Assembly: GCA_024875585.1 (NCBI GenBank)
Contig: GCA_024875585.1_4107.1
DNA length: 64,000 bases
Source of the DNA: a phage
Direction: 5' to 3' (one strand)
Part shown: piece after piece, positions 49,018 to 51,635 of the stretch
Position numbering within the stretch: the stretch's first letter is position 1
How the letters are laid out: the number at the start of each line of letters is the position of its first letter
The notes under the pieces: generated by a model
What the model saw: only the letters and a program-made list of their open reading frames with translations
Told to the model about the DNA's origin: nothing
The model's database searches: none
Program-made: the position numbers and the translations under genes

Positions 49018-49872
49018 ATGAAACTTTATCTAATAGTTGACTATAATAAAGAATATGCTGGAAATTTTTCTGAAGATTCAGAAGGACATTGTACCTCTAC
49101 TAATGTTAATGTGCGTTCCAGTAATACACATGAGCATGAATCAATTACTAATCTAAAAAATTTCATCACATATCGAGCCTTTGAAACCAATTTTTGTCGT
49201 TCGAGATATTCTAAGTTTGAGTACCCATTAATTGATGTTCCTGATGAATTGATGTTCCAGCTAATGTTAACTGGAGTTCAAGATTATGATTATATTGCTT
49301 ATAATCACATAACAAAGAAGATTTACATTGGAACATCAGTACACGATACTTCCATGTATGCATCATGCCCAGATGATCGAATGAAGCATAGAAATTCATA
49401 CTATAGTGGATCAGTTGGTTCAAATAATTCATCAAATAAAAATTCATTCTTTGAGTACGTGTATGATTACCATCACGAGAAAAAAGAACGTGAAGATTAC
49501 TGTATAGAGATTGATAGTACTAATGGATATGAAGACGTAAAAGAAGCTCTTATGCCATACATTATAGAAAAATACTACAAAGATTTTCAGTACTGTAGTA
49601 ATTTTCTAATCAGAAATTCTATTCAAATCGGTCGTCAATCCACTGCATACGCTATGTACTACAGTGATTCTCCAGTTGTAGCAGGAAATGAAAGGGGTGA
49701 TATCCTACCAATTCCACGTGAAGATATGACATTCATTTTTACATCTTTTATTGAGGATGATGAATTGTACGTTAAAAATAAGCATCGTTTCATGCCAAGT
49801 AAAATTGAGATTATTAGAAGCATCAGTGTTGATATATTAACCAATTTTACTGAAAAAACTGAATATAACTGA
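49018..49872 (+). CDS. Family B-related protein (284 aa)
   Basis: DELMFQLMLTG motif near N-terminal third; SD ATGGAG. Confidence 0.6.
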   Translation: MKLYLIVDYNKEYAGNFSEDSEGHCTSTNVNVRSSNTHEHESITNLKNFITYRAFETNFCRSRYSKFEYPLIDVPDELMFQLMLTGVQDYDYIAYNHITKKIYIGTSVHDTSMYASCPDDRMKHRNSYYSGSVGSNNSSNKNSFFEYVYDYHHEKKEREDYCIEIDSTNGYEDVKEALMPYIIEKYYKDFQYCSNFLIRNSIQIGRQSTAYAMYYSDSPVVAGNERGDILPIPREDMTFIFTSFIEDDELYVKNKHRFMPSKIEIIRSISVDILTNFTEKTEYN

Positions 49873-49902
49873 GACAAAATAGAAGTTAATGATATAATGT
49901 GA

Positions 49903-49931
49903 GGTGACAGTATATACTGTCACCTTTTTTT
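49903..49931 (+). terminator. rho-independent terminator
   Basis: GGTGACAGTATATACTGTCACC then TTTTTTT; preceded by TGATATAAT box. Confidence 0.7.
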
Positions 49932-50500
49932 AATCCTGAAAGGTTCCTATAAGGAAATGATTAAAAGCCTAATCCACTCGAAAATGTAGAGGGTAGATGA
50001 GTAGTCCTTTCAGTACGAACAGCAGATGAAACCCGTTAGATGATGGCATAGTTTGAACCACTCACGGCAATGCGGCTGTATAAAGAACTCCAATAGGATA
50101 AAGAGAGTTCCTAGATAGACATATAAGGATCGCACCTTACCAATTATCTAAGGGAGATTTCATAAGAAATATGCGGTCGGAATTATACAATATAGTTGCG
50201 TCCAAATTTTGTGAAATCAAATACAAGTACTGGTCATATGGTATTTGTATTATGTGTCGGGATGTTTAAGACCGACGACCGTTGCTACAAGAACCGCGAT
50301 AGAGAGAAACAGAGCAACCCGCTTTCGTCTCGTAAGAGAATTCGTGATATGAACTATGTGAAGGCCACCAGCGTCAAACTTTTTTGTTCTTTCCCCTGCG
50401 GGGGGGGATGAAATATGCTCAAGCAAACCTCGTCAATATTAATTAAAAGACTTTATAATACTTGTAGAATTGTACATGCACCGCATGGAGAATTCTACTG
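49932..50500 (+). ncRNA. candidate structured non-coding RNA / ORF-free GC-richer region
   Basis: ~570 bp with no RBS-preceded ORF, visibly higher GC than flanks, several local hairpins; identity unknown. Confidence 0.3.
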
Positions 50501-51097
50501 ATGTTGATTACATCAACATCACGTATATTCATTGATGTTTCCATAGGAATAATGATGGCATTTATTAAAAAAGAAAAAACTATTACTTATAAAACTTTGA
50601 ATTTTGATGATTGTATTAATCAATCACAGGACGAAAATATTTTTACTGGATATGTGGTTATTAAAGAAAAAGGATGCATTTCTTATATAAAGGAATTGCA
50701 AAATGGCATTGAAGTCACTTCAGTTAAATTACTTCCTACACAAAAACCAACAATATCAAAAGCCCAGTACGGTAATTATTTCGAGGAAAGATACAGTAAT
50801 AATTTAATAAGTGTTAAAGCTCATATTGTAAAAGGAGAACTAGAAGGAGAATATAGAAAATTCAACCCACAAGGAAAATGTGTTTGGGTTAAATACTACA
50901 ATTCAGGTGTTGATATAACATCTGAAATTATAGAGTTCTTAGGGTTGTCATGTACACCTGAAACTCTTCATGACTACAAATTTAATACTGAAGAAGAGTT
51001 TAATCTGATGATGCGTTATGGATCACATTTTAAATTTTTATATGAATATAACGTTGACAGTAGTATTTTTGATAAAATAGTACATAACTGTCTATAA
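50501..51097 (+). CDS. hypothetical protein (198 aa), possible MORN/YwqK-like repeats
   Basis: ORF+SD GGAGAA; GEYRKFNPQGKCVWVKYYNSG repeat-like segment. Confidence 0.55.
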   Translation: MLITSTSRIFIDVSIGIMMAFIKKEKTITYKTLNFDDCINQSQDENIFTGYVVIKEKGCISYIKELQNGIEVTSVKLLPTQKPTISKAQYGNYFEERYSNNLISVKAHIVKGELEGEYRKFNPQGKCVWVKYYNSGVDITSEIIEFLGLSCTPETLHDYKFNTEEEFNLMMRYGSHFKFLYEYNVDSSIFDKIVHNCL

Positions 51098-51113: not shown

Positions 51114-51635
51114 ATGTCGAAGAAGGATACTTCGAATAAGCACTCAGTTCATTTCAGTACTGGAAAAGATAACTGGACAACCCCAAAAGATTTTTTTGAA
51201 GATTTAGATGAGTTATGGGGATTTACACTTGATGCTGCTTGTGTAGATGAGACTGCATTGTGTGATAATTTTTTCACTCCAGAAGATGATTCACTGTCAC
51301 AGGATTGGGGAAATAATATAGTTTGGTTGAATCCACCATATAGTGACTTAAAAACATGGTTATCTAAAGCTGTAGATGCATATAATAACGGAGCAACTGT
51401 AGTTATTCTTGTACCCTCAAGAACCGATACAATTGCTTTTCAGGATTATGCTGCTAAAATATGTGATTGTATTTGTTTTATTAAGGGAAGATTGCGATTT
51501 GGTATACCAGAAGAACCCGATAAGAAAACTGATTCAGCACCATTTCCTTCGTGTCTGATAGTTCTGGATAAGTACTTAACCACTGCTAAAATCAATTGTC
51601 TTAAATCTCTCGGATTGGTGATGAAGAATTTATGA
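51114..51635 (+). CDS. dam: DNA N6-adenine methyltransferase (phage Dam family)
   Basis: WTTPKDFF...FTLDAAC...VWLNPPYS: catalytic NPPY motif and upstream blocks typical of the small phage Dam family. Confidence 0.8.
   Translation: MSKKDTSNKHSVHFSTGKDNWTTPKDFFEDLDELWGFTLDAACVDETALCDNFFTPEDDSLSQDWGNNIVWLNPPYSDLKTWLSKAVDAYNNGATVVILVPSRTDTIAFQDYAAKICDCICFIKGRLRFGIPEEPDKKTDSAPFPSCLIVLDKYLTTAKINCLKSLGLVMKNL

Follow-up and report, generated by a model that had tools for sequence, protein, structure and literature searches.

Covariation strongly supports a gene for a large, intricately folded non-coding RNA in Asteriusvirus-like jumbo phage DNA

The interval between the gp415-like and gp416-like genes

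The stretch of DNA analysed here, called the window below, comprises 64,000 nucleotides (GenBank assembly GCA_024875585.1, contig GCA_024875585.1_4107.1) and is jumbo phage DNA of the 121Q/PBECO4 type (Asteriusvirus). The region under study and its flanks are about 95% identical, by blastn, to the Asteriusvirus jumbo phages 121Q, PBECO4, phAPEC6 and G17. In the equivalent interval of G17, a gp415-like gene with an annotated terminator at its end is followed by a gp416-like gene. The window has this intrinsic terminator of the upstream gp415-like gene as well (49901-49931, + strand), with an 11-bp stem at 49901-49926 and then a T run, so that the strong terminator reported by the first-pass annotation at the left edge of the gap is indeed present. 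Both flanking proteins fall in PHROGs without assigned function. A Dam-type N6-adenine DNA methyltransferase is encoded two genes downstream of the RNA described below (51114-51635; Pfam PF05869, E = 7e-32).

The gap between the terminator and the next gene (49932-50500) had been described as GC-richer than its surroundings, and this was confirmed: its GC content is 0.399 versus 0.331 for the window, which corresponds to the 96.5th percentile of 569-nt windows. When 200-nt windows are used, values of 0.375-0.425 are found between 49900 and 50499, and of 0.275-0.355 on either side. The GC maximum of the window lies elsewhere, in coding stretches near 12 kb that reach 0.45.

Only short ORFs are present in the gap. 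One of them, a 71-aa ORF with a TTG start (50196-50411, + strand), was judged to be no gene: it has no match in Pfam or PHROG, the stretch aligned to it is free of stops in only 2 of the 57 homologues described below, and the length of this stretch modulo 3 is distributed among them as 23/20/14, with all residues represented. A protein-coding gene was thus rejected (no conserved frame, lengths that are not multiples of 3, no family match), in line with the earlier view that the gap holds no real ORF. Small hypothetical proteins are annotated on the element in some, indeed many, GenBank records, and our reading would amount to a correction of these annotations, as they are placed on what appears to be an RNA gene.

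A promoter-like site, whose function is predicted, is located at 49871-49898 on the + strand. It consists of a -35-like GAGACA (49871-49876), a 16-nt spacer and a TG-extended -10, TGATATAAT (49890-49898), and gives 10 of 12 consensus matches with the TG present. From this site we infer a transcription start at about 49904-49906. The terminator at 49901-49931 lies between the -10 and the first helix of the element in the window paralogue alone and is absent from the other paralogues; because of this position, a transcript from the 49871-49898 promoter would carry most of the terminator. The site belongs to a recurrent promoter class, G(G/A)(G/A)ACA-N13-15-TGnTATAAT, members of which are located in the window at 49871, 55955, 59844 and 63728 (all +). 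The + strand of 121Q has 26 sites of this class, which is found before the genes for SSB, primase, topoisomerase, DNA polymerase and the late sigma factor and before all four copies of the RNA.

Homologues in jumbo phages and bacterial islands

When the stretch was compared by blastn with 50,697 phage records, 62 of them matched (62-71 phage records across the searches), and every record among the matches listed was a jumbo phage of 320-386 kb. Identity to distant genera is about 70% over about 480 nt, and the hosts of these distant phages are Erwinia, Yersinia, Salmonella, Klebsiella, Serratia, Pectobacterium, Cronobacter and Xanthomonas. BLAST finds the element at four places in each Asteriusvirus record and at five in the other Rak2-like genera; within the 64-kb window, neither blastn nor the covariance model detected a second copy. 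In the whole genome of 121Q (NC_025447.1), four copies were mapped, all on the + strand and all in annotation gaps: at 90.3 kb, after the sigma-factor gene gp167; at 192.8 kb, which is the orthologue of the window copy; at 247.5 kb; and at 326.6 kb, between minus-strand genes. Another 2 kb of 121Q without an annotated gene (135194-137161), situated between arrays of ORFs of about 60 aa, is unrelated to the RNA by blastn.

To collect the family, we searched IMG/VR, JGI/ENA metagenomes and GTDB genomes for patterns of conserved blocks and confirmed the matches with an nhmmer profile. This gave 132 nhmmer matches. Among these, 97 span the full length of the element and 57 are non-redundant (<96% identity), two sequences being on average 66% identical. 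Eight pattern hits in Bacteroidales, Actinomycetota and metagenome contigs were discarded as chance matches, six of them lying inside Tex-like coding sequence. Nearly every copy is preceded by a sigma-70-like extended -10 promoter: TGnTAnAAT with an upstream G(G/A)(G/A)AC box is present in 42 of 56 homologues, and the island subfamily carries a TGCTATACT variant.

Clustering at 80% identity yields groups in which GAP32, BF and/or fHe-Yen9-04 are represented by a single copy each. As these paralogue groups are common to the three phages, the duplications are older than the genera concerned. The core nucleotides are the same in all paralogues, which vary only in their peripheral helices and in modules that can be swapped; the group-specific positions fall in helices and modules and include no unpaired guide-like segment, which led us to reject a guide-like variable single strand.

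The genes downstream of the copies differ as well, encoding ADP-ribosylglycohydrolase-like, methyltransferase, HNH-like and other proteins, the last without assigned function. Moreover, at least nine copies, including the one at 326.6 kb of 121Q, have a bidirectional terminator and a convergent gene directly 3' of them. This arrangement indicates a free-standing RNA gene and not an obligate leader, and obligate cis-regulation of the downstream gene is unlikely to be the function of the family. A riboswitch or T-box-type leader was rejected for the same reason and because several paralogue groups have no terminator hairpin.

Copies are also found in bacteria, where they occur singly on small islands of Enterobacterales that bear an integrase. 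Eight GTDB assemblies carry one copy each, namely Serratia fonticola (complete chromosome), Serratia sp., Enterobacter chinensis, Silvania, Buttiauxella, two Enterobacteriaceae and a 2.8-kb contig binned as Clostridium. The usual order in these islands is an integrase (of the large serine or the tyrosine type), the RNA, a convergent cI/LexA-like repressor and a Ner-like gene, and the integrases that adjoin the RNA are thus of two unrelated types. In S. fonticola (NZ_CP183218.1) the RNA neighbours a serine recombinase and two ParB/RepB-like genes, beside rof and tilS. Two tandem rof (Rho-modulator) genes adjoin this RNA-bearing island (locus L122, 4775-5490).

Among 5426 complete E. coli genomes, two contain relatives of the element, in non-coding island DNA. 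In strain LR-29-1 (NZ_AP027515.1; locus L148, 15950-26300) the RNA is located in a 10.7-kb island directly after ffs, together with a tyrosine integrase disrupted by IS3, a DUF4326-mSLOG / DUF488 / DuOB trio, a resolvase and a DUF2188 gene; a phage-type promoter lies upstream of the RNA and a further 700 nt of non-coding DNA follow it. No relative of the island proteins was found in 121Q by tblastn, the phage and island contexts have no protein in common, and plasmids gave no match to the element.

These distributions bear on the origin of the gap. It had been proposed that a GC-richer island in AT-rich phage DNA may be recently acquired foreign DNA. A recent or host-derived origin is not supported, as the element is conserved across Rak2-like genera, which have its paralogue groups in common. 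A fragment of a host gene was rejected too: the BLASTN match to a host protein-coding gene that the first-pass annotation had envisaged was not seen, the only matching E. coli genomes being the two with non-coding island copies.

Covariation, strand and fold of the RNA

The 57 non-redundant homologues were aligned and folded with RNAalifold, and all column pairs were screened for covariation. The screen added three pseudoknots and replaced one RNAalifold helix (columns 541-543/554-556), the place of which was taken by pseudoknot C; a 2-bp closing helix proposed by RNAalifold (50016-17/50431-32) was dropped, being invariant and hence unproven. In its final form the model comprises 105 pairs, arranged in 22 helices and with three pseudoknots, and was compared with a control in which the 3' partner was slid by 1-3 columns. 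The suggestion that the gap encodes a structured RNA was strongly borne out: standard pairs occupy 93.5% of 5848 cells, as against 38-42% in the slid control. Changes on both sides are seen in 78 of the 105 pairs (38-45 after sliding), compensatory cells number 1059 (125-207 after sliding), and the covariation score is 0.489 (0.066-0.101 after sliding). None of 500 shuffles reached any of five measures, and the three pseudoknots are 99.5-100% paired.

Thermodynamic stability of the element is unremarkable (MFE z = -1.75, with 5 of 100 shuffles folding equally well). As folding energy by itself is weak evidence, the case is built on covariation. Nor does the RNAalifold energy separate the strands (-134.8 vs -136.1), and the strand was therefore set by G-U counts and the promoter. 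There are 401 G-U cells versus 104 A-C cells, which indicates that the RNA corresponds to the + strand, and the promoter-like site and the U runs are on the same strand. Taken as a comparison of homologous sequences, these data strongly support the view that the gap is a + strand gene for a large, intricately folded non-coding RNA.

The 5' domain (49936-50016), predicted like the other domains from covariation, is made up of helix 1, a capping hairpin, hairpin 3 and pseudoknot A. Helix 1 (49936-49943 with 50006-50013) is the long-range pairing CCTGAAAGG/CCTTTCAG that had been noticed as a possibility in the window alone, and up to six pair types per position are found in it across homologues. 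Two local hairpins noticed at the same time, TTCCT-ATA-AGGAA (49944-49956), which is the capping hairpin, and GTCGG...CCGAC (50256-50276), likewise proved to be conserved with compensatory changes. Hairpin 3 (49969-49996) has a conserved loop, CGAAAAUGUAG. Double-sided changes in helices 1-3 affect 6, 5 and 7 pairs, respectively. Pseudoknot A (50001-50003 with 50014-50016) is 100% paired, its middle pair being UA in 31, AU in 15 and CG in 11 sequences; it closes the 3' strand of helix 1 and turns that strand into the loop of a small hairpin.

The following region (50019-50079) contains helix 5 (50019-50023/50075-50079) and helix 6 (50033-50040/50062-50067), which surround the invariant blocks GAAACCCGUUAG and CACGGCAAUGCGGC and, in other paralogues, an optional insertion helix. 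Hairpin 7 (50085-50090/50105-50110), in which 6 of 6 pairs change on both sides, and the small helices 8-11 occupy 50085-50153, together with the conserved blocks GAUAGACAUAUAAGG and CUAAGGGAG. Helix 12 (50156-50159/50215-50218, spanning 50156-50218) encloses an optional peripheral module, UACAAUAUAG..GCGUCC (50160-50214). Paralogue groups differ in where they carry a module of about 30 nt (UACAAUAUAG..UCCGUCC): it may be inside helix 12, helix 20 or both of them. Swapping of this kind is typical of RNAs that have a defined tertiary fold.

Hairpin 13 (50220-50251) is 12-13 bp long, and its loop (50233-50239) takes part in pseudoknot B with 50347-50353. All seven pairs of this pseudoknot covary, and it is 99.5% paired, the variants including AUUGUA/UACAAU, GUCGAAU/AUUCGAC and UUCAUGU/ACAUGAA. 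In hairpin 14 (GUCGG...CCGAC, 50256-50276), 4 of 4 modelled pairs change on both sides. The 3' core (50277-50375) comprises pseudoknot C, helices 17 and 18 and hairpin 20. Pseudoknot C is formed by GUUGC (50281-50285) with GCAAC (50314-50318), the latter within the loop of helix 18; helix 17 is 50295-50299/50342-50346, helix 18 is 50302-50306/50322-50326 around the block GAUAGAGAGAAACAGAGCAACCCGCUUUCG, and hairpin 20 is 50329-50338. A candidate helix at 50277-50279/50373-50375 is invariant and its pairing is hence unproven. The blocks between helices are invariant or nearly so in all 57 sequences, and the covariance model of the 3' domain scores 144 bits on the window copy.

Behind the core, most copies have a terminator-like stem-loop with U7, then a conserved 8-10-bp CCCC..GGGG hairpin rich in U-G pairs, and then CAAAUCUCGUCAG; in these copies the terminator-like hairpin lies inside the conserved element, and conserved structure continues beyond it. 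Whole paralogue groups have no such internal terminator, and in the window copy the stem-loop is likewise absent and only the U run at 50378-50383 is left. The conserved tail of the window copy (50389-50436) consists of the hairpin UUC..CCCCU-GCG-GGGGG..GAU (50389-50412) and the motif CAAACCUCGUCAA (50424-50436). With 54 U-G cells, the tail hairpin appears to be constrained as + strand RNA. A separate observation concerns helix 18, whose 5' strand (50302-50305) shows a further correlation with the lower part of the 5' strand of the tail hairpin (50387-50390); the latter in turn resembles the 3' strand of helix 18 (CUUUC/CUUCA, CUUCC/CUUCC; alignment A1, columns 564-567 vs 718-721). This correlation could reflect an alternative pairing or merely common ancestry.

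Further downstream, a structured 3' extension (50464-50557, z = -4.06) forms three predicted hairpins on the + strand, at 50464-50498, 50499-50521 and 50529-50557. Most phage copies are followed by a conserved module of about 100 nt to which this extension is homologous, and inspection by eye showed compensatory variants (CAUUC/GAAUG, CAAUC/GAUUG, CAUAC/GUAUG, CUAAC/GUUAG). The last hairpin contains the SD AGGAA (50545-50549) and the AUG (50555) of the gp416-like ORF. Since this hairpin sequesters both, the gp416-like gene truly starts at 50555, and the start at 50501 in the ORF list is wrong. In the window, where the RNA runs into the gene and the last hairpin covers these signals, a cis effect on the gp416-like gene is possible.

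Possible roles and comparison with known RNAs

Searches against known RNAs gave no assignment. Rfam 15 had no match for 49700-50700 at E up to 10, for the whole window at the gathering score, or for six homologue loci at E up to 1, and on the E. coli island it detected ffs only. The first-pass annotation would have counted an absent Rfam match against a structured RNA; the match is absent, yet this only shows that the family is missing from Rfam. The ROOL, GOLLD, OLE and HEARO covariance models did not match either, and ARAGORN detected no tRNA or tmRNA in the 64-kb window; on the basis of ARAGORN and Rfam, tRNA, tmRNA and RNase P RNA were rejected. The same applies to group I and group II introns, as the element lies between a terminator and the next gene and has neither an Rfam match nor flanking exons. 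The idea of an intron remnant was abandoned on these grounds, the element being intergenic and having its own promoter-like site. In the searchable literature, including the Asteriusvirus genome papers of fEgEco12 and Sharanji, we found no description of such an RNA. A 2023 catalogue of viral structured RNAs lists motifs of 29-151 nt only, and fragments of the RNA might be among them. As neither Rfam 15 nor the searchable literature contains it, the RNA looks like a previously undescribed class of large phage RNA.

What might such an RNA do? We consider it probable, at roughly 0.6, that it acts in trans as a folded particle, a catalytic version included. This reading draws on the core common to all paralogues, on the stand-alone copies and on the lack of a co-occurring mobile-element protein. 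In the scenario that we propose, transcription would run rightward from about 49905 through a conserved core (about 49936-50436), giving about 530 nt if it ended with the core at about 50436 and about 650 nt with the structured extension to 50557. Such a particle may function by itself, by assembling with further copies, or together with a conserved component of the host, in the way proposed for ROOL and GOLLD. Its mode would be neither antisense pairing nor coding, and it would not be an obligate leader of the gene that follows. Having several copies per genome would then provide dosage or variant subunits.

It needs to be stressed that a cis-acting element accounts equally well for ancient copies that are dispersed and each preceded by a promoter of the replication-gene class. 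On one hand, such an element could be a replication-origin RNA, with a promoter and a structured pre-primer (as in ColE1 RNA II or, similarly, T4 oriF/oriG) that primes phage DNA synthesis, and islands would then carry a copy for amplification by an infecting jumbo phage. The four to five dispersed places per genome, the location of the four mapped 121Q copies on one strand, and the occurrence of the promoter class before SSB, primase, topoisomerase and DNA polymerase genes would all suit an origin, as would the conserved C4/G6 hairpin and U run near the 3' end, a length near that of RNA II (about 555 nt), and the RNase H, UvsW-like helicase and T4-type replisome encoded by 121Q; a cis element could also be borrowed by unrelated islands without common proteins. 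Nevertheless, three covarying pseudoknots and many invariant unpaired bases exceed the known needs of an R-loop primer, no plasmid carries the element, and the cumulative GC skew of 121Q has no inflection at the copies (a weak argument, as skew there follows transcription), so that we regard an origin as rather unlikely. On the other hand, the element could be a transcription leader whose nascent RNA modifies RNA polymerase or senses a signal and thereby causes terminator read-through, in the manner of HK022 put, lambda nut or a giant riboswitch, governing the following operon or interfering with convergent genes. Each copy lies directly behind a promoter-like site, most have a stem-loop and U7 after the core, terminators stand between many genes in these phages, and the 3' hairpin of the window copy takes in the SD and AUG of the gene that follows. 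The leader must, however, be reconciled with at least nine copies that have no co-directional gene downstream, with an internal terminator absent from whole paralogue groups and the window copy, with mutually unrelated downstream genes and with a size and architecture unlike those of put, known antitermination RNAs being 40-120 nt long. We therefore think that it, too, is improbable.

A ribozyme of a new class, self-processing or trans-acting, would overlap with the trans-acting particle. Most large structured bacterial RNAs with known function are ribozymes, and the size, pseudoknots, invariant unpaired blocks and swappable peripheral modules resemble those of large ribozymes; still, models of group I, group II, RNase P and small ribozymes gave no match, and no candidate substrate or cleavage site was found, which makes this idea quite doubtful. 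As to the possibility that there is no RNA gene at all, and that the gap is a degraded protein gene, recent foreign DNA or a DNA-level repeat (a protein-binding or recombination site), GC above that of the flanks and the small hypothetical proteins of some GenBank records might be quoted in its favour. It is contradicted by the lack of a conserved frame, by compensatory changes that keep Watson-Crick and G-U pairs on one strand only, by conservation across genera with common paralogue groups, and by absence from host genomes bar two island copies, and we find it extremely improbable.

A further reading concerns the islands. It is conceivable, though we would not expect it, that the RNA is both a new phage RNA machine and the currency of a helper-parasite or defence relationship. 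If this were true, an island copy with a phage-type promoter would be switched on, amplified or interfering during jumbo-phage infection; it could be, for example, a phage-dependent origin, or a decoy subunit that poisons the particle of the four to five paralogous phage RNAs. Routes to the function may be offered by the paralogous places (about 4-5 per genome, in groups common to several genera), by the promoter class that replication genes have as well and by the presence on unrelated integrative islands. Furthermore, the carriers are culturable jumbo phages of E. coli, Salmonella, Yersinia, Erwinia and Xanthomonas (121Q, PBECO4 and phAPEC6 among them), and hence the RNA can be deleted, expressed and purified.

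Few RNAs of bacteria and phages are both large and intricately folded, and those with known jobs are mostly ribozymes or core machines. With group I introns, RNase P RNA and tmRNA the present RNA shares large size, pseudoknots, GNRA-capped hairpins and swappable peripheral elements; it differs from them in having no Rfam or ARAGORN match, no flanking exons and its own promoter-like site. ColE1 RNA II is likewise a promoter-driven transcript of about 0.5 kb with a required structure, and T4 oriF/oriG represent several origins per genome with a promoter class common to replication genes, whereas the window RNA is far more elaborate and has neither an antisense regulator, nor a mapped initiation site, nor a skew signal. 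HK022 put and lambda nut are similarly placed, just downstream of a promoter and upstream of terminators, but the window RNA is 5-10 times larger, its internal terminator is optional and many copies have no downstream operon.

Among jumbo phages, a parallel is provided by PA5oct, which is distantly related to the Rak2 group and in which RNA-seq revealed four transcripts of the + strand, 236-619 nt long and free of ORFs, named ncRNA001-004 (Lood et al. 2020, PMC7318152). One of these putative lncRNAs lies between minus-strand genes, like the 326-kb copy of 121Q. Homology was rejected, as none of the four loci gave a significant match with nhmmer or the 3'-domain covariance model with filters off. 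At its end, PA5oct ncRNA004 (MK797984.1, 246116-246734) has a hairpin, UUCCUUCCC-AAAC-GGGGAGGAA, which looks like the tail hairpin of the window, but no statistical similarity was detected.

Finally, ROOL and GOLLD are large, pseudoknotted RNAs borne by phages or prophages, without a known protein partner and of unknown function, which form RNA-only cages (PMC12286853). ROOL (RF03087) and GOLLD (RF01998) resemble the present RNA in their phage- or prophage-like carriers, length of several hundred nucleotides, many helices, multiple pseudoknots and lack of an associated protein. However, the window RNA matches neither model by sequence or structure. Moreover, ROOL and GOLLD hosts are mainly Firmicutes or environmental samples and many of their loci lie near tRNAs, whereas the present family is found in Gammaproteobacteria, no tRNA is present in the 64-kb window, and the tRNAs of 121Q (72-78 kb) are away from the four copies. 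The presence of about 4-5 diverged paralogous places per genome is also unlike ROOL and GOLLD. They are the closest known analogues, although the resemblance is one of kind only, as membership in either family failed; the RNA would thus add a further class beside these cage-forming RNAs.
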